DNA of 39,497 nucleotides from a virus. The position numbers were made by a program, and so were the translations under genes. The notes beneath the pieces were generated by a model. It was not told the origin of the DNA, made no database searches, and worked only from the letters and a program-made list of their open reading frames with translations. The stretch is from the UHGV virus genome UHGV-0087833. One strand, 5' to 3'. Positions 1,564 to 34,213 of the stretch are shown here, in pieces (the stretch's first letter is position 1; each line of letters starts with the position of its first letter).

Positions 1564-1954
1564 CGTCTTTTCTCCCCGGAATTAACTCGCGTGGATTATC
1601 GGAACGGTGGTAGAGCCATATACCAATACGCACAGCAACAATTGCTGACACGAATGCGCCAGCAGAGAAAACAATCCCTTTTTCAAAAGAGTCCTGCGTG
1701 ATAGTAGGGATCAGGCTGGCTATGCCGATAAGAATTGATGCTGCTGGTTTATAAAAAAGAAGGCCGCAGAGAAAGCTAAGCATCGACAAGAGTACACGAC
1801 GACGAATGGGATACTCTACCGCAGAGGTAACAAAAATTACCGCTCCAGCCAAAGCCCCCAAAGCAACCTCAGGAGGAACTCCTGCTATCACCGCCGCCAG
1901 AGAACTCATGCTAAGCCACTGATTTAAAGTTTCACTGGTTAGTTGAGCTGACAT
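1550..1954 (-). CDS. Multi-TM membrane protein, holin/antiholin-like
   Basis: Several hydrophobic helices, overlaps holin start; ATG at 1954 preceded by GGTGGA. Confidence 0.5.
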   Translation of the reverse strand: MSAQLTSETLNQWLSMSSLAAVIAGVPPEVALGALAGAVIFVTSAVEYPIRRRVLLSMLSFLCGLLFYKPAASILIGIASLIPTITQDSFEKGIVFSAGAFVSAIVAVRIGIWLYHRSDNPRELIPGRKDDGNA

Positions 1955-2174
1955 GTTTTCCACCGTTTATATGCATAACTACCTCCTGAACAGTAAAGCA
2001 TTATGCATGATAAACCATTTATGGTTTTTTGTTACTTCAACATCGTCAATCCCCTGTTTTCATGCCGATAATAAGGCTCACCTTTTACATAACACTGAAG
2101 AAACAACAGTACAGAAATGATTCAAACTATGGAGATCGGGTTGAATACCGCGCCATTTGATGGCGCGGTAGCGG

Positions 2175-2459
2175 TCAAATAGAGAAATAAATACAAAAAC
2201 AAAAAATGACAGGAACAGCAAAATCCAACAGACTTCCCACATCCCACACGCGTGGATCAAAACCTCCCCACCATGGCATGTTGATACGTTTCCCTTTCCC
2301 AAACTTTTCTATCCAGCGATATTCTGCCTGGGTGTGTTCACGCGCAATGAAGAACGTACAACCGGCTATCGCACCGTAAGCCCAGTTTCCGGTAGAAAGG
2401 CCAACCAGTATCTGCGCAATAACCGCGCATACTGCATGTGTTATTGGTGTTGTATCCAT
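2175..2459 (-). CDS. Small membrane protein directly downstream of tailspike
   Basis: 94 aa from ATG 2459 with AGGA RBS; two hydrophobic segments. Confidence 0.5.
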   Translation of the reverse strand: MDTTPITHAVCAVIAQILVGLSTGNWAYGAIAGCTFFIAREHTQAEYRWIEKFGKGKRINMPWWGGFDPRVWDVGSLLDFAVPVIFCFCIYFSI

Positions 2460-2495
2460 ATTTTTATCCTTTTTTAATTTAGCAAATTGATACAA

Positions 2496-5270
2496 TTACA
2501 CTCCTGATACTTCAATAGATAGTTGAATCTTATTTGGCATCTTGTTGCTTAAATATATGGTTGCAAAGTCAAACGAAATATTTAAGTTATTTTCATCACC
2601 ATCATTATCTGAAAGAACTCCGGTTTTCAATACAACATTTTGCTTATTAATTTCTTTTAAAGGAGAAAAATCAATTGCCTCACCACGATGAATAAGAACA
2701 CCAACTGCAATTACCCCATGAATATCAAGTATGTCGTGCATATCAAGGCGAACACATGGGACATATCCACCAACAAGGATACTTGTAGATTTGTTGGCTT
2801 CAAGTGTTATTAGATATTTTCCGTCTGGTTGAACTATTGTTCCTGCTATTCCATCTGGCGTGTTGAACATACCGCAGTATCTGTATCCTGCTCCAACAGG
2901 AACAATTCTGTTACCGCCAAGATCATGGAAATTTCGAACAATTATTGCACCAGGAACTGATGAATAAACCATTACTGCCTCTGTTTGCCCTGATACAGAG
3001 TCTGATGTTTCTGGGTTCGCCATGCATAAATTACCACCAAAATAAATATTTTGGATTAGAGGGGTGAGGCCATCATTAACCTCAAAACGTAAAAAGCCCT
3101 TGAGAACAGTCCTTGCGGTATTATTCTTAATAACAACAGGAAGTTCTTTATAGTAAGAGTTTCTGTCTGTCTGTGCCAGAGTTGTTTCAATAAAAACAAA
3201 AGGTCTGTGATTACGTTGAGTTGCATTCACAGGTTTGTACCTCAAGTTGTATGGCAAAGACATCTCAGTAAAACCATCAATATAATTACAGTTCTGAATC
3301 GTGAACCCACCACCACTATATCTTACAAAAAAAGGAGCCGGTCCGCTAAATCCCCTGGCGTTCATTCCATCATACACTTCATTTAATCCGCGTATTACAC
3401 CAGCATAATACAAATTGACTGAATTGCCGCCTGTAAAAGTTGTTTCGTATGATGGGCCGTGTCCACCGCAACATGAATTTCTTGTATCGCCATCAGGGAA
3501 AAATTTAACTCCATCATATGCAGTTCCACCACCCATCATCGTTGGATTTATAATGTTATTATACAGTGATACCATTTGAGTCCCGCTTACATCAAGCCCC
3601 CTCCTGCAAGCAAATGCTATCATATCCACGACTGTGCAATAGCTGCTATTGTATATTTCAACACCATAACCAGTGCCGTTTGTTAAATCATATGCACGGT
3701 TTGAGTATTCAATATATGGCTCTATTATTTTCGTTCTGTAGCATGACTCAAGAAAAATTCCAGTTTCTGAAAAGCCGATTAGTTTTATTCCTTCTATATG
3801 CATATCAACAGCGCCATCTATCACAAGACCACGGAACCCCAAATCACCAGGAGATGCGTTCTGCGTGACAGGTCTTTCAAAATTGAAATCACCGACAATT
3901 CTGCCGTAGCATGGTTTTCTTTTATATATATTTGCCTTTCTTGTGATTTTAAACACGTCTCCAACAGATGGTTTAAACGGGAATGGTCCCTGAGCATATT
4001 CAAATTTTGCTGTTTTAGTGTCGTAATCCCAATGAGTTATGTATCTTGATATTCCGGCGTTAGCTCCGGTGACACCTGTTACTTTTACCTGATTGTATTG
4101 TTTTGTTAATGTTGCATCATTACCAAATGAGAATTCACCTCCGGATACAGATGCTGTTACGGTCGTTGAGTAATCATTGCTCGCAGAGTAGAAAAAATAA
4201 AATGCACCTGATATCTCCGCTTTTTTTGTTGCATTATCAAAAGCAGTAACAACATGCATTTCACCTTCACAAGCCTGTCCTCTATTATCTGTCTGAATTA
4301 AGCGATTGCCATGAATCATAATTATATCGCCTGCATCAACAGAATATGCTGAGTTAATTGATATTGATGTGTCACCAGGATTTATTGTTGAATTATAGTC
4401 AATTGGCGTGGCATCTCCACCTTCGAGTCTTATGAAATAATCATCAATCCAGTTTGGGCCAAGAGGCTCTTTTGCGGTTGACTTTAAGACAACCTTGCCA
4501 TCAGCTACCCAGTCATAGTTATAATTATCCCCGCCGCATTTTATGCGGCTAATCAAATACACACCAGAATCCCACTTCAGGCGTTTTCCGTTAGATGCGC
4601 AGTAAATGATGGCATTTGTTATTGCGTCTGTATCGTCAGTAATGCCATCCCCTTTTGCACCAAAATCGCGAACATTGACGATATCCCGCATTTTATCCTG
4701 GAACGTTCGGTACACAGCCCCAGAACCATACTGAATAAACCAACCAAAACCACCAACAACCCCGGCGATTGCAGCATCGACATAATTACGCATTGAGCGA
4801 TTATTTACAGCGTCCTGCTCAAGTGATGGATCTGCAAGGTTAGAAATTTTGTTTTGCTTTGCATCGTAATATTTTGCAAGCAAAGATGGTTTCATCAATG
4901 CACGTCTGAACCACCCAAAACATCGCTGGATCAGCATCGTCAGGTAGTCAAATGCATCTTCATGAACTTCGGGGAAAAATTTTCCCTGATTGCGAAGATC
5001 AGTCTCCTGCACCACATCAAGCACACGCTCTATCGTAATTCGCCAGCCAGCAGCAAGCGGCGACGGGAGAACCACTTCACCGCCACTATAAGTGCCCGCT
5101 CCAGTTACCTTATAACCGGTATCCAGAACCAATTCTGTTACGTTCCCGTTCAGGTCAGACACCTGAACAACCAGGTCGGTTTTTTTGAAAATACGGAAGG
5201 TATACGGAAATGATGTCGTAACGCCGTTACCGGTGTATTCGTTGTGGTCAACTTCGGTTGAGACCGTCAT
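2496..5270 (-). CDS. Tailspike / tail fiber protein
   Basis: 924 aa; N-terminal tail-attachment-like domain (YTGNGVTTSFPYTF), long beta-rich body; sits between ejection proteins and lysis genes. Confidence 0.85.
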   Translation of the reverse strand: MTVSTEVDHNEYTGNGVTTSFPYTFRIFKKTDLVVQVSDLNGNVTELVLDTGYKVTGAGTYSGGEVVLPSPLAAGWRITIERVLDVVQETDLRNQGKFFPEVHEDAFDYLTMLIQRCFGWFRRALMKPSLLAKYYDAKQNKISNLADPSLEQDAVNNRSMRNYVDAAIAGVVGGFGWFIQYGSGAVYRTFQDKMRDIVNVRDFGAKGDGITDDTDAITNAIIYCASNGKRLKWDSGVYLISRIKCGGDNYNYDWVADGKVVLKSTAKEPLGPNWIDDYFIRLEGGDATPIDYNSTINPGDTSISINSAYSVDAGDIIMIHGNRLIQTDNRGQACEGEMHVVTAFDNATKKAEISGAFYFFYSASNDYSTTVTASVSGGEFSFGNDATLTKQYNQVKVTGVTGANAGISRYITHWDYDTKTAKFEYAQGPFPFKPSVGDVFKITRKANIYKRKPCYGRIVGDFNFERPVTQNASPGDLGFRGLVIDGAVDMHIEGIKLIGFSETGIFLESCYRTKIIEPYIEYSNRAYDLTNGTGYGVEIYNSSYCTVVDMIAFACRRGLDVSGTQMVSLYNNIINPTMMGGGTAYDGVKFFPDGDTRNSCCGGHGPSYETTFTGGNSVNLYYAGVIRGLNEVYDGMNARGFSGPAPFFVRYSGGGFTIQNCNYIDGFTEMSLPYNLRYKPVNATQRNHRPFVFIETTLAQTDRNSYYKELPVVIKNNTARTVLKGFLRFEVNDGLTPLIQNIYFGGNLCMANPETSDSVSGQTEAVMVYSSVPGAIIVRNFHDLGGNRIVPVGAGYRYCGMFNTPDGIAGTIVQPDGKYLITLEANKSTSILVGGYVPCVRLDMHDILDIHGVIAVGVLIHRGEAIDFSPLKEINKQNVVLKTGVLSDNDGDENNLNISFDFATIYLSNKMPNKIQLSIEVSGV

Positions 5271-5374
5271 GTTAAATCTCCAGATAGTCGCAGCACCCGT
5301 TGCGCCGCATATCTGGTTATTCTATTACCTGAAAAACCACATATGGATAGAAAGACTGTAAATACGAATAGATA

Positions 5375-5389
5375 TTACCTTTCGGGTAA
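5375..5389. promoter_or_regulatory. Operator palindrome TTACC-tttcg-GGTAA (site 1)
   Basis: Perfect 5+5 inverted repeat with 5-bp spacer between divergent tailspike and ant-operon starts. Confidence 0.6.
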
Positions 5390-5426
5390 TTTGCAAAACG
5401 TGCTGGATAGCAAACAAATTATTTGA

Positions 5427-5446
5427 TACTGTATAAATATACAGTT
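5427..5446. promoter_or_regulatory. LexA (SOS) box TACTGTATAAATATACAGTT
   Basis: CTGT-N8-ACAG with AT-rich centre, about 20 bp upstream of the first antirepressor-like gene. Confidence 0.8.
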
Positions 5447-5465
5447 ATTGCATGGAGAAGATAAG

Positions 5466-5723
5466 ATGCAGCAGTATCACTATCCACTGGAAGACGGATT
5501 TACCGAAAGGATTCACACGCCGGGAGGCGTCAGGTCACTGGTGGAGGGATCGCACTTGATGAAATTACTCCGGGATCTCGATAAGGATGGATTTAATGTC
5601 GATGGCCCACTTGCCGAACTGACTGCACTGATTAACTACGTCACCAGCTCACAGATGTCTATGCGGGATCTGCAAACACATCTCGACTATTGTGCCGAAC
5701 AATTACGAAAACAAACCAGATAA
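5466..5723 (+). CDS. Antirepressor C-terminal-domain paralog (stand-alone)
   Basis: 85 aa; clearly similar to the C-terminal 50 aa of the downstream Ant (LMKLLRDLDKDGFNVDG...DLQTHLDYC vs LMNLLNQLQEDGHDVSG...DIQTHAEYI); GGAGAA RBS. Confidence 0.65.
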   Translation: MQQYHYPLEDGFTERIHTPGGVRSLVEGSHLMKLLRDLDKDGFNVDGPLAELTALINYVTSSQMSMRDLQTHLDYCAEQLRKQTR

Positions 5724-5754
5724 GGTTTGCAATTACCAAGTAGAGTGTTTATTA

Positions 5755-5769
5755 TTACCTTTTCGGTAA
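5755..5769. promoter_or_regulatory. Operator palindrome TTACC-ttttc-GGTAA (site 2)
   Basis: Perfect inverted repeat just downstream of the Ant-C paralog stop. Confidence 0.6.
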
Positions 5770-5855
5770 ATTTACATCGCACTCCTCTTGTGCCATAGTA
5801 ATCGGGCACTGGCAAAATCCAGTGCCGGGATTGGCGTCCCGGGTTACTACAGAGG

Positions 5856-5887
5856 CACATATGCCGCATAAGCGGTTTTTTTATGTG
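5856..5887 (+). terminator. Hairpin plus T7 run inside the ant leader (intrinsic terminator/attenuator candidate)
   Basis: CACATA...CCGC-ataa-GCGG-TTTTTTT-ATGTG; upstream hairpins at about 5803-5826 and 5827-5844. Confidence 0.45.
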
Positions 5888-6035
5888 TAAAGCGCACCTA
5901 TTCTATGGTGGGCTGTGTGGGGGCACCGAAAGGTGCGCCGGGTCCTTTGTAGCCGGTTACGCCAACCCTGCACAGTTCACCACCAACCGATTGGCGTCGG
6001 TAGTGGTGATTAACCTAACTACAAAGGTGATCACT

Positions 6036-6722
6036 ATGACTGCTAACGTAACCCCATCTGTTTTTCATTTTGAATCAGAAGCCACCATTCGAGCCATTGT
6101 TATTGATGGAAATCCTTGGTTTGTTGCCAAAGACGTTATTAAAGCTCTTCAACTGACAAACCCCACTATGTCAATAAAATCTCTTGATGATGATGAAAGG
6201 GCTAAATTTAACTTAGGCCGTCAAGGTGAAACCAATATTATCAACGAGTCAGGCCTCTACACACTGATCCTCCGCTGCCGCGACGCAGTGACACCAGGCA
6301 CTATCCCCTACCGCTTTCGTAAATGGGTTACAGGTGAGGTTCTTCCTCAGATCCGCCGCACCGGAAGTTACATTAAAAACTCGCTCCCGCAGGAAGAACG
6401 CATAAAGATAGTTGCCGACCAGGTAGCCAACGCCACAGCATCAGCAGTGATGCAGGCAATGAAGATAGAGAACAAAACCTACAGTGCCCCACTGAAGCCC
6501 GGCTACCGCAGCCTGATTCATTCTCCGTCTGGTGTTCTCGGCCTGACGGAGAACTCACTGCTGATGAATCTGCTGAACCAGTTACAGGAAGACGGGCACG
6601 ACGTATCGGGCGCGGCGGCGGAGCTGACCACCATGTTCTGCTACATTGTTGGTGTGAGCAAATGCCTGCGTGATATCCAGACCCACGCGGAGTACATCAA
6701 CGACAAGGCTGGGTTCTTCTGA
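6036..6722 (+). CDS. ant: Antirepressor Ant (Bro-N domain plus Ant C-terminal domain)
   Basis: Bro-N signature (GNPWFVAKDVIKAL...LDDDE...ESGLYTLIL...FRKWVTGEVLPQIRRTGSY); start at internal ATG 6036 with AAAGG RBS. Confidence 0.85.
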   Translation: MTANVTPSVFHFESEATIRAIVIDGNPWFVAKDVIKALQLTNPTMSIKSLDDDERAKFNLGRQGETNIINESGLYTLILRCRDAVTPGTIPYRFRKWVTGEVLPQIRRTGSYIKNSLPQEERIKIVADQVANATASAVMQAMKIENKTYSAPLKPGYRSLIHSPSGVLGLTENSLLMNLLNQLQEDGHDVSGAAAELTTMFCYIVGVSKCLRDIQTHAEYINDKAGFF

Positions 6723-6794
6723 CGGGCGGCGGCACAGGGATGTGCCTTTAAATAATTCTGTACAGATTGCAGACTGTGGGTGAATAGCGTACTA

Positions 6795-6809
6795 TTACCT
6801 TAAAGGTAA
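6795..6809. promoter_or_regulatory. Operator palindrome TTACC-ttaaa-GGTAA (site 3) overlapping a sigma70-like promoter
   Basis: TTGCAG (6768-6773), 16-bp spacer, TACTAT (6790-6795), then operator and AGGAGG RBS. Confidence 0.6.
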
Positions 6810-6821
6810 AGGAGGCGCGAT

Positions 6822-6989
6822 ATGACAGCGTTGAAAAATCGTACTCAGCACAATGAACAAGCCAAGCAATGCTGGGATGTCATTGGAAAAGTTATGCTTG
6901 GCCGCGCAAGCAAAGAGCGCGACAAGGATATGGTTTACCAGACAGGAACATCTTTCAGCGACTTCAAGGCGGCATTTCGCTCCAAATAG
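6822..6989 (+). CDS. Small hypothetical protein (55 aa), first gene of accessory cassette
   Basis: ATG 6822 eight nt after AGGAGG; in-frame TAG at 6987; below the ORF-track size cut-off. Confidence 0.5.
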   Translation: MTALKNRTQHNEQAKQCWDVIGKVMLGRASKERDKDMVYQTGTSFSDFKAAFRSK

Positions 6990-7009
6990 AAGCACATCAG
7001 GAGTTTTCC

Positions 7010-7450
7010 TTGAAGTTTAACATTAGAATATCTAATAGTTTTCTACATGGGGAAAGCAACACCCCTTTCGCTGTAGACGGACCTTTCCTTACTGATGATG
7101 AAATAAAAATCATACAAAGTTTTTTAGAGGATGTTGCCAATGGAAGGGCGCTTGTTGGAAAAAACAAGCCCTCGTGGGTTGATGATAACCATGATAAAAT
7201 TCCCGGCTCAGACAATTATGAGCAAGAGAATTATTGGCATTATCATTGTGGGCCAACATGGTATCCAAACACATTTAAGAATTATACCATTAACTTAAAT
7301 TTCAACCCTGGCGGAAGGCATTCTAATGAATGCATTCATTATGCAAAAAATGATAATGAAATTGTCATTGTTGGATTTTCAAGAGAACACATACCTTTCC
7401 TTTCATCAGATGGAAACAACAATCCGCTTTTTAATGATGAAGAAGAATAG
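7010..7450 (+). CDS. Hypothetical protein in low-GC island (146 aa, TTG start proposed)
   Basis: Only in-frame start not overlapping upstream ORF is TTG 7010 with AGGAG 6 nt upstream; region visibly AT-rich relative to the rest of the phage; followed by terminator. Confidence 0.5.
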   Translation: MKFNIRISNSFLHGESNTPFAVDGPFLTDDEIKIIQSFLEDVANGRALVGKNKPSWVDDNHDKIPGSDNYEQENYWHYHCGPTWYPNTFKNYTINLNFNPGGRHSNECIHYAKNDNEIVIVGFSREHIPFLSSDGNNNPLFNDEEE

Positions 7451-24648: not shown

Positions 24649-24846
24649 GAATCACGCCTAAGGACCGTGATGCCAGAAGTTCCAGGGGCTTGGCGGTGAT
24701 GGTTTCCCTTGAAGGACTATCACCGCCCTTTTTACAGCAGGACGCCATTGCGATGACTTCATGCTGTAAACCCGTACAGCCACGGAAGGCATAACTCATT
24801 GCTTCCAGTTCGCCCGGTTCGCCGGGCATTTTTTTAAGGTGAGATT

Positions 24847-33124: not shown

Positions 33125-33355
33125 TCATGAGTAGAAGAAGTATGCCAGTTCTGCTTTTGAGCGCAGCCATTGTCTTGATTTACAGGCTTTAAAAAGCCCA
33201 TTCATCAATACCTTACCTGGCATTTTGCGCTTACCTGTTAAGTGAGTCTGGATATAGTGACTCGTCGTTCCGGCTTCCTGTGCGAAGGCTTCACGCTCAT
33301 CCGGAGTAAGTGCAAGCCAGTGCTTTTTGAAATCGAAATGTCCGTTATCGCTCAT
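33125..33355 (-). CDS. Cro-like HTH protein, first gene of rightward lytic operon
   Basis: 76 aa; HTH-like AFAQEAGTTSHYIQTHL; divergent from repressor across the operator cluster. Confidence 0.55.
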   Translation of the reverse strand: MSDNGHFDFKKHWLALTPDEREAFAQEAGTTSHYIQTHLTGKRKMPGKVLMNGLFKACKSRQWLRSKAELAYFFYS

Positions 33356-33509: not shown

Positions 33510-34094
33510 ATGAAAAGTATCCAGGACGTCCGCAGGCAAAATCTCAACGACTTGATCGACCGTGAATTCAATGGTGTTCAGACGCGGATGGCTGAAAAAC
33601 TTGGAACTCAGGCAAATCTGGTAAACCGCTGGGCTCTTGGCAAGAAGGTTATCGGCGACCAGGTTGCGCGAAAAATTGAAGCTGCCGCCAATAAACCCCG
33701 TAACTGGCTTGATATCGATCGCTCGCTTTCTCAGGAAGGTTTTCAGCCTGTCGGACCAAGCGACATTGGTCAACTGGCGGCTCACAACCTGGAACGCTGG
33801 ATGAGCGAAAGCCGCGACCTTTCAACGCAGGGAAAACTTCACCGCGCATCCGGCGTCGCCCAGGTAACAATCAGCCGCCTGTTAAACAATGAGGTCAGCG
33901 TTTCCATTTCCACCCTGGAGAATGTTGCATCCGCATTTGGGCGTCACGGATATGAATTACTGATTCACCCGCACGACCCCGCGACTATCAACTATGACCG
34001 CTCGCGCTACGCATTGTTACCTGAAACAGAGAAGGCAAAGATCGAAAGTTACATTGAATTTGTCATCAACCAGAACGAAAAAAATAAACAATAA
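33510..34094 (+). CDS. Prophage repressor candidate, tandem HTH_XRE domains, no S24 peptidase domain
   Basis: Two HTH-like segments (QTRMAEKLGTQANLVNRW and HRASGVAQVTISRLL); no Ser/Lys autocleavage module; position equals lambda cI. Confidence 0.6.
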   Translation: MKSIQDVRRQNLNDLIDREFNGVQTRMAEKLGTQANLVNRWALGKKVIGDQVARKIEAAANKPRNWLDIDRSLSQEGFQPVGPSDIGQLAAHNLERWMSESRDLSTQGKLHRASGVAQVTISRLLNNEVSVSISTLENVASAFGRHGYELLIHPHDPATINYDRSRYALLPETEKAKIESYIEFVINQNEKNKQ

Positions 34095-34166: not shown

Positions 34167-34213
34167 TTTTTTTAACTCATATCTATTGACATCAAACCAA
34201 ATACGCATAATCA

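Follow-up and report, generated by a model that had tools for sequence, protein, structure and literature searches.

The viral genome UHGV-0087833 (39,497 nucleotides (nt); this whole stretch of DNA is referred to here as the window) harbors an antirepressor locus flanked by a divergent tailspike gene (2496-5270, minus strand) and by tail structural genes. Within this locus, a LexA box precedes a small antirepressor gene, ant, and two RNA genes separate it from a second, larger antirepressor gene whose product carries a Bro-N domain. At 92-97% identity, the region matches Escherichia phages of the genus Uetakevirus (epsilon15-like podoviruses), among them phiV10, TL-2011b and ZX5. The features on which our argument draws, together with those of the distant repressor gene rep, are the following:

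5375-5389, unstranded: palindrome of the repressor Rep, TTACCTTTCGGGTAA, between the divergent tailspike gene and small ant
5427-5446, plus strand: LexA box TACTGTATAAATATACAGTT (consensus match, conserved position)
5466-5723, plus strand: small antirepressor gene ant, 85 amino acids (aa), ortholog of the Ant of phage SPC32H (PDB, PHROG and alignment to SPC32H)
5727-5755, plus strand: promoter-like TTGCAA-N17-TATTAT, its -10 abutting palindrome O2, TTACCTTTTCGGTAA (5755-5769)
5771-5799, plus strand: putative isrK promoter TTTACA-N17-TGcCATAGT (promoter scan; consensus match, start unmapped)
5806-5882, plus strand: isrK-family small RNA (sRNA) (Rfam RF01394, 74.7 bits, gathering score 50)
5831-5837 and 5847-5855, plus strand: isrK decoy sites b1 (TTGGCGT) and a1 (CTACAGAGG), complementary to C4
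5901-5987, plus strand: C4-family antisense RNA (Rfam RF01695, 79.5 bits, gathering score 45, full model)
5944-5952 and 5959-5965, plus strand: C4 pairing elements, loop a' (CCTTTGTAG) and single-stranded b' (ACGCCAA)
5991-6030, plus strand: leader of the Bro-N ant gene with the C4 targets b2 (TTGGCGT, 5991-5997) and a2 (CTACAAAGG, 6019-6027)
6036-6722, plus strand: large antirepressor gene, 228 aa, Bro-N plus a C-terminal SPC32H-Ant-like domain (Pfam, PDB)
33125-33355, minus strand: Cro-like gene, neighbor of rep and divergent from it
33510-34094, plus strand: prophage repressor Rep, 194 aa (PDB 5D50_A and 5D4Z matches, Pfam helix-turn-helix (HTH))

We read this region as the anti-immunity locus of an epsilon15/phiV10-type (Uetakevirus) prophage that probably works as a two-tiered switch, and we put the probability of this reading at roughly 0.75.

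The identity of the first gene follows from structural and phage-specific databases rather than from domain libraries, as Pfam and NCBIfam searches with its product returned nothing useful and only PDB and PHROG identified it. Residues 2-84 of small Ant align to PDB 5D50 chain E, an 86-aa 'Anti-repressor protein' (E 1.4e-46), the protein belongs to phrog_450, and it is approximately 87% identical to the annotated ant product of SPC32H. The repressor encoded at the far end of the window matches the same crystal entry, aligning full length (residues 1-190) to chain A, a 199-aa 'Repressor' (E 4e-42), and it also matches 5D4Z, which holds the C-terminal domain. We take 5D50 and 5D4Z to be the Ant and Rep proteins of Salmonella phage SPC32H. 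Rep shares approximately 42% of its residues with SPC32H Rep, and the repressors of phiV10 and ZX5 (ORF21 of the latter) are 100% identical to it. Its domains in Pfam are HTH_3 at residues 106-147 and a weaker Cro/YdaS-like HTH at residues 21-61, and Pfam returned HTH families only, with no Peptidase_S24 match at E values up to 0.01. The gene arrangement agrees as well: in the SPC32H GenBank record, an 86-aa ant is transcribed divergently from the tailspike gene and rep lies in the early region beside a divergent Cro-like gene, which are also the relative positions of the two genes in the window.

The LexA box TACTGTATAAATATACAGTT has two mismatches to the 20-mer LexA consensus and is the sole match at three or fewer mismatches in the 39.5-kb window; none of 100 shuffled sequences gave any consensus match. 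It ends 19 nt upstream of the small ant start codon (5466). The CTGT-N8-ACAG core of the box never changes across eight aligned phages (the window, phiV10, TL-2011b, ZX5, PAS61, Tyrion, epsilon15 and SPNIS2), only its spacer does, and the box is canonical in five of six further loci, which come from Citrobacter (two species), Erwinia, Superficieibacter, Pseudocitrobacter and Scandinavium. The SPC32H sequence also carries a LexA box ahead of ant. The preliminary description of this DNA, made from its letters alone, had drawn attention to a near-consensus box about 20 bp upstream of an 85-aa gene and to a repressor with two HTH domains and no S24 module, and both observations hold. A variant box with ATGT in place of CTGT in its left arm (TATATGTATAT..ATACAGT) occurs in Klebsiella phage Kp4865-1 (locus ~935-957) and in Superficieibacter electus (locus ~2455-2476), two independent lineages, where it could be either a weakened site or a tolerated variant; the lytic variant SPC32N, which is said to carry a point mutation in its LexA box, is a possible parallel. 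We set aside a second CTGT-N8-ACAG occurrence in the window, TGCTGTAAACCCGTACAGCC at 24762-24781, as probably due to chance given its GC-rich spacer and non-consensus flanks.

Rep is expected to act through palindromes of the form TTACC-N5-GGTAA, of which the window contains ten exact copies against 0.04 expected. They are distributed as follows:

5375, 5755 and 6795: palindromes in the ant region, at three promoter-like sites
33440, 34152 and 34214 (exact) and 33392 (one mismatch): palindromes flanking rep
24235, 27395, 31047 and 31109: palindromes elsewhere, adjoining replication-gene and packaging-side intergenic regions

The number of copies in SPC32H is also ten, and these are located beside its tRNA, terminase, rep and replication genes. 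This genome-wide scatter, with copies adjoining a tRNA gene, the packaging side and the early and replication regions, resembles that of the C1 operators of phage P1. Upstream of small ant, the distance from the palindrome to the LexA box is 52 bp in each of the eight aligned phages and in five of the six additional loci (54 bp in Superficieibacter), and the GenBank record of epsilon15 annotates the equivalent site as 'protein_bind: repressor'. At three sites a -10-like hexamer directly abuts the palindrome (TATTAT/TACC at 5750, TACTAT/TACC at 6790 and AATCAT/TACC at 34209), a geometry that points to repression. At the small ant and isrK promoter-like sites, the palindrome instead lies just 5' of a -35-like hexamer and is centered near -44, and Rep might therefore act as an activator of the ant and isrK promoters in the lysogen. 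In the case of small ant, the hexamer is TTGCAA at 5391-5396, directly 3' of the palindrome at 5375-5389. Two promoters placed by hand for this gene, TTGCAA-N17-ACAAAT and a recA-like TTGATA overlapping the box, were both weak and poorly conserved and were dropped. Between the palindrome and the LexA box we also observed a motif, TGCTGGATAG (5400-5410), that does not vary among the eight aligned phages and varies little in the other genera; it fits no clear -10 or -35 hexamer and may be either the true -10 region (GATAGT or GATAAT in some relatives) or the binding site of another factor.

The TTACC/GGTAA half-sites are common to all Rep types examined. Between E. coli and Salmonella phages, identity is 87% for small Ant and only about 42% for Rep, yet both groups use the same half-sites, a combination which implies that Ant may recognize a conserved feature of Rep. 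Small Ant could thus cross-induce related prophages. An analysis of Rep and Ant co-evolution was abandoned, as it comprised only three to four lineages with an inconsistent pattern.

Kim and Ryu reportedly found in 2013 that SPC32H Rep is not cleaved in the SOS response and is instead inactivated by the small Ant protein, whose promoter overlaps a LexA site, and that a point mutation in this site gives rise to a lytic phage; the structure of the SPC32H Ant:Rep complex is said to have been solved by Kim et al. in 2016. The core LexA/Ant/Rep mechanism is thus already established in the same phage genus. In a secondary description of this mechanism (PMC9638917), the DNA-bound form of Rep is a tetramer, which is broken when an Ant tetramer binds two Rep dimers. 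By orthology, we infer that the first tier of the switch in the window would likewise consist of a LexA-controlled Ant that inactivates a non-cleavable repressor. Rep, which has no recognizable autocleavage domain, would silence the prophage through its scattered palindromes while host LexA occupies the box just 5' of small ant; upon DNA damage, cleavage of LexA would allow the 85-aa Ant to be produced, and Ant would then bind Rep and split its DNA-binding tetramer, leading to induction.

Published data on ZX5, whose Rep is identical to that of the window, fit with this scheme. In that study (PMC9782041), mitomycin C raised free phage 100-fold, from 1e7 to 1e9 plaque-forming units (PFU)/mL, and when Rep was overexpressed, transcription of the endolysin and holin genes fell by more than 99.9% and free phage dropped to zero. 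Overexpression of the ZX5 Bro-N antirepressor lowered the number of lysogens from 1e9 to 1e6, or approximately 1000-fold (PMC9782041). The study does not mention LexA, and text searches of it did not turn up any treatment of small ant or of the two RNA genes (PMC9782041). Together with the homology of Ant and Rep to their SPC32H counterparts and the shared gene order, the ZX5 mitomycin C response lends support to the suggestion made in the preliminary description that SOS induction proceeds through LexA derepression of an antirepressor.

The second gene does encode a Bro-N antirepressor as first described (Pfam Bro-N at residues 18-104, E 5e-20), and its C-terminal domain is indeed a paralog of the stand-alone first protein: small Ant aligns to residues 147-224 of large Ant with 41% identity (E 2e-16), and the same domain of large Ant matches nearly the whole Ant chain of 5D50_E (E 1.1e-13). 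Large Ant differs from ZX5 ORF4 at one position from about residue 70 onward. The view that the two genes form an adjacent pair did not survive closer inspection, as they are 312 bp apart and the gap contains promoter-like hexamers, a Rep palindrome, an sRNA with its intrinsic terminator and an antisense RNA gene. Palindrome O2 and TTGTGCCATAGT are invariant in six phages, and the hexamers and palindrome of the cassette are kept despite different upstream DNA in TL-2011b and Kp4865-1. The -10 element of the putative isrK promoter ends 7 nt before the 5' end of the Rfam isrK match, with the same spacing found in Gifsy-1. A terminator scan placed the isrK terminator at a stem spanning 5863-5876 followed by seven T, and predicted none in the stretch from the stop codon of small ant (5723) to isrK. 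The 5' part of the cassette also scores 44.1 bits at 5793-5845 against the c4-a1b1 model (RF03163) in permissive mode, just below its gathering score of 46.7; the copies of Stx phage PA28 and Gifsy-1 pass this model.

The C4 element has a fold energy of -45.2 kcal/mol, and its pairing elements are complementary to sites on both sides of it. Its b' sequence ACGCCAA matches TTGGCGT in b1 and b2, and its loop a' pairs with a1 (with one G-U pair included) and with a2, which overlaps the Shine-Dalgarno sequence AAGGTGA located 9 nt before the Bro-N ant ATG. We compared ten C4 loci, drawn from Uetakeviruses, a Stx phage, Gifsy-1, SfV, a Yersinia phage, PhiR49_2 and APSE-7, and found seven variants of the a' loop and four of b', each accompanied at constant positions by its own matching a2/a1 and b2/b1 sequences, the exceptions being mismatches in Gifsy-1 a1 and SfV b2. 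The mean complementary run between a' and a2 was 9.2 nt for cognate and 6.5 nt for non-cognate combinations over these ten loci, and four more loci supply further covarying variants. This loop-restricted complementarity count was used in place of duplex energies for the whole C4:target region, which proved too noisy, as GC-rich stems dominated and the downstream cognate ranked first in just five of ten cases. The sole open reading frame (ORF) starting inside C4 runs for 15 codons and ends in the a' loop, and while an ATGA is present at 6036-6039, the frame corresponding to Gifsy-1 orf45 has four earlier stop codons. With the frame through C4 closed after 15 codons, C4 should act directly on the ant ribosome-binding site. 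In the ZX5 GenBank record, a coding sequence annotated as 'ash family protein' (2121-2234) largely overlaps the C4 RNA (2107-2192) and is probably a spurious call.

The preliminary description regarded the stand-alone small gene as the unusual part of this locus, and comparison among relatives reverses that view: no relative examined lacks small ant, and it is the Bro-N cassette whose presence differs from one to the next. Small ant occurs alone, with no cassette, in epsilon15 (where a terminator is annotated after it), SPC32H, SPNIS2, PAS61 and two chromosomal loci. The tandem arrangement of small ant, palindrome, isrK, C4 and Bro-N::Ant is found with constant spacing in Escherichia, Enterobacter, Citrobacter, Erwinia, Superficieibacter and Scandinavium, and at least 80% of the 1.43-kb module was detected in 289 of 5,426 complete E. 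coli genomes (approximately 5%). The RefSeq features underlying these E. coli matches are a 'hypothetical protein' for small Ant and a BRO-N protein, with no sRNA annotated. Sequences of the shared domain fall into two identity groups, with small Ants 60-87% identical to one another, fused domains 54-78% identical to one another and the two groups about 40% identical to each other. Beyond the window, the Ant-like C-terminal domain occurs in Bro-N proteins of ZX5, TL-2011b, Tyrion and Kp4865-1 and at four chromosomal loci of other genera.

The isrK-C4 cassette also precedes antirepressors with unrelated C-termini, such as Gifsy-1 AnrP and the antirepressor of Stx phage PA28, and cassettes in front of unrelated ant genes were found in Stx phages, Gifsy-1, SfV, APSE and a Yersinia phage, which indicates that the cassette is modular. 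Judged by sequence comparison, in this lineage the effector of the cassette shares a domain with the SOS antirepressor of the genus. Irregularities were seen among the relatives. The Bro-N ant of phiV10 (locus 3737-4416) is frameshifted inside the Ant-like domain, leaving an annotated 194-aa protein and a 29-aa ORF, so phiV10 probably has no working large Ant. TL-2011b carries a 1.1-kb insertion between small ant and the isrK cassette (its oddities are covered by locus coordinates 1946-3034 and 4943-5359), and its gp42, annotated 'anti-repressor Ant' and encoded on the opposite strand, is the third of its proteins whose C-terminal domain is Ant-like.

From sequence, covariation and the precedents of Gifsy-1 and P1, we infer a second tier in which the large antirepressor would be gated by C4 and isrK. 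In this tier, Bro-N::Ant would be expressed from the isrK-C4-ant cassette with its own Rep-linked promoter; C4 would pair with the Bro-N ant ribosome-binding site and block translation, and isrK, which bears both target sequences, could titrate C4, such that large Ant would be made only upon a change in the isrK/C4 balance or in Rep occupancy. The large protein would then most likely either reinforce and commit the switch after the first tier or act on infection. The two tiers may also be coupled. With no terminator between small ant and isrK, SOS transcripts should stop at the isrK terminator, with the decoy sites at their 3' end. It is conceivable, if rather speculative, that this constitutes a two-stage feed-forward circuit in which LexA cleavage yields both small Ant and an RNA with the a1/b1 decoys, C4 is titrated and translation of Bro-N Ant is unlocked, with the loss of Rep from the cassette palindrome amplifying the response and rendering induction irreversible.

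Several considerations weigh against the two-tiered switch as we have drawn it. LexA binding, Rep non-cleavage and Ant-Rep binding would each be carried over from a homolog whose Rep is approximately 42% identical, and the Ant-like domain of large Ant is itself just ~41% identical to small Ant. The ZX5 data on large Ant come from an overexpressed glutathione S-transferase (GST) fusion (PMC9782041). The consensus scan found no promoter scoring at least 9 of 12 upstream of small ant, whose promoter is thus not confidently placed. In addition, Rep bound near -44 at the ant and isrK promoters could either repress or activate, and if it represses ant strongly, then LexA cleavage alone would be insufficient.

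The signals lying between the two ant genes bear most directly on whether they instead form a single operon, in which one LexA-controlled promoter would cause small and Bro-N Ant to be made together on SOS induction. The two genes share a strand, and as no terminator is predicted between 5723 and isrK, transcription started at the LexA promoter should run at least into the cassette; part of the transcription in Gifsy-1 even passes the isrK terminator (PMC4825925). Nonetheless, an intrinsic terminator (5863-5876 plus seven T) separates the genes, the cassette has promoter-like hexamers and a Rep palindrome of its own that persist with different upstream DNA in TL-2011b and Kp4865-1, and the large ant Shine-Dalgarno sequence is complementary to C4. 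The Gifsy-1 study describes the homologous gene as transcribed and untranslated at baseline (PMC4825925), and the LexA-controlled small gene stands alone in epsilon15, SPC32H, PAS61 and two other genera. We therefore judge an operon of this kind to be improbable, and the simple co-expression from the LexA promoter put forward in the preliminary description is not borne out, given the isrK terminator, the separate promoter-like hexamers abutting a Rep palindrome and the C4-complementary Shine-Dalgarno sequence.

A different possibility is that large Ant lies outside SOS induction, with small Ant alone handling that process and the Bro-N protein serving as an anti-immunity weapon at infection in the manner of the P22 and P1 Ant proteins. 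This is plausible enough to merit consideration, if on balance doubtful, and we feel the same about its more detailed form, in which the incoming genome would express large Ant while C4 and Rep have yet to accumulate, and the protein would either hit the Rep-type repressors of resident related prophages or bias the infection towards lysis. The modularity of the cassette and its placement in front of unrelated ant genes, the membership of C4 in the regulator family of P1/P7 immI (Rfam RF01695) and the existence within the same genus of phages with the small gene only, among them the characterized SPC32H, would all fit with a role of this sort. So would the frameshift in phiV10, which makes large ant appear dispensable, and the half-sites common to all Rep types examined, which render cross-talk plausible. 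Set against this, the constant tandem spacing in six genera suggests a functional link between the two genes, overexpression of large Ant affected the lysogeny of ZX5 itself (PMC9782041), and a role at infection is compatible with the two-tiered model and does not exclude it. As for RecA-stimulated cleavage of Rep, with the LexA box serving a gene unrelated to induction, we could find nothing to recommend it beyond the general lambda precedent; the missing S24 match in Rep and the alignment of Rep and the small protein to 'Repressor' and 'Anti-repressor protein' chains of a single crystal entry make it highly improbable.

Downstream of the large antirepressor gene lies a third Rep-linked site:

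6767-6809, plus strand: promoter-like TTGCAG-N17-TACTAT with Rep palindrome TTACCTTAAAGGTAA (6795-6809), its -10 abutting the palindrome

Two ORFs lie 3' of it, a 55-aa ORF at 6822-6989 (phrog_8607) and a larger one of approximately 145-190 aa that ends at 7450 and has an uncertain start (phrog_5954), and both of these PHROG families are without an assigned function. The corresponding slot in TL-2011b holds a small ORF and a YafO-family toxin. A YafO-type toxin following the TL-2011b annotation was considered and rejected for the window, as Pfam and NCBIfam searches gave no match for the ORFs at 6822-7450. The 6767-7450 region may nevertheless be a Rep-controlled two-gene moron or a toxin-antitoxin slot.

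Collectively, the identification of this locus as SPC32H-type offers a testable induction mechanism for common O-antigen-converting prophages. The RNA-gated second antirepressor, which employs the Ant domain a second time and is found in at least six genera, joins the subjects of SPC32H Ant/Rep, P1 c4 and Gifsy-1 IsrK; in the literature searchable here we found neither a connection among these three bodies of work nor a description of small ant in association with an RNA-gated second antirepressor. The biology extends known mechanisms and introduces no new principle.

Among characterized systems, the lambda-type cleavable repressor differs from Rep by its C-terminal S24 peptidase domain, of which Rep shows no match. 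The LexA-controlled antirepressors of the Gifsy prophages (Lemire et al. 2011, PMC3121763) and the Tum protein of phage 186 follow the same logic as the first tier, with LexA repressing a small antirepressor of a non-cleavable repressor. To this extent the likeness to Gifsy and Tum drawn in the preliminary description is apt, but it does not extend to sequence: searches of PDB, Pfam, NCBIfam and PHROG with small Ant returned no Tum or Gifsy antirepressor family, and on the basis of these comparisons the latter are analogs rather than relatives, the true and direct homolog being that of SPC32H. SPC32H and the window share the genus, an ant gene divergent from the tailspike gene, Rep homology over the full length with no peptidase, a LexA box and the palindromes. 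They differ in that Rep is only ~42% identical and that SPC32H has no isrK-C4-Bro-N cassette, its ant being the last gene before a convergent one; the window thus has a second Ant-domain protein that SPC32H does not.

The closest precedents for the second tier are P1/P7 and Gifsy-1. The immI operon of P1/P7 comprises the c4 antisense RNA, icd and ant. As in the window, the antisense RNA is part of the transcript of its own target, its a' and b' elements match a1/b1 upstream and a2/b2 downstream to control antirepressor synthesis, and specificity shifts by covariation of these short elements. The window, by contrast, has no icd-like coupled ORF, its antirepressor is a Bro-N fusion, its main repressor is unrelated to P1 C1 and its a1/b1 sites reside in a separately terminated sRNA.

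Gifsy-1 matches the order of the cassette, with isrK and its terminator followed about 20 nt later by a C4-like RNA (STnc1160) and then by an antirepressor gene in the isrK-orf45-anrP arrangement. It differs from the window in that AnrP has neither a Bro-N match nor an SPC32H-Ant-like domain, in that a 45-codon ORF running through the RNA is coupled to anrP (in the window this frame has 15 codons and a2 lies on the ant Shine-Dalgarno sequence), and in that no LexA-controlled small ant was seen upstream, an antiterminator Q gene occupying that slot. According to the Gifsy-1 study, anrP is transcribed and is translated only when IsrK is supplied in trans (PMC4825925, Hershko-Shalev et al. 2016). 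The compensatory mutations G28/G31 with C162/C159 tested there (PMC4825925) fall on the b1:b' duplex when their numbering is transferred to the Gifsy-1 sequence, and by our comparison the processed ~80-nt RNA that the study names STnc1160 corresponds to the C4 element. The paper likens the STnc1160 region to the P4 CI RNA, and text searches found no mention of phage P1 in it (PMC4825925); it may thus have been overlooked that antisense pairing could block the anrP ribosome-binding site directly. In our analysis, the Gifsy-1 'orf45'/STnc1160 region (locus 2597-2680) scores as a C4 RNA with 69 bits, and its a' loop is complementary to the anrP Shine-Dalgarno region. This comparison suggests that the 'orf45' region of Gifsy-1, like its counterpart in the window, is a C4-type antisense RNA aimed at the ribosome-binding site of an antirepressor gene.

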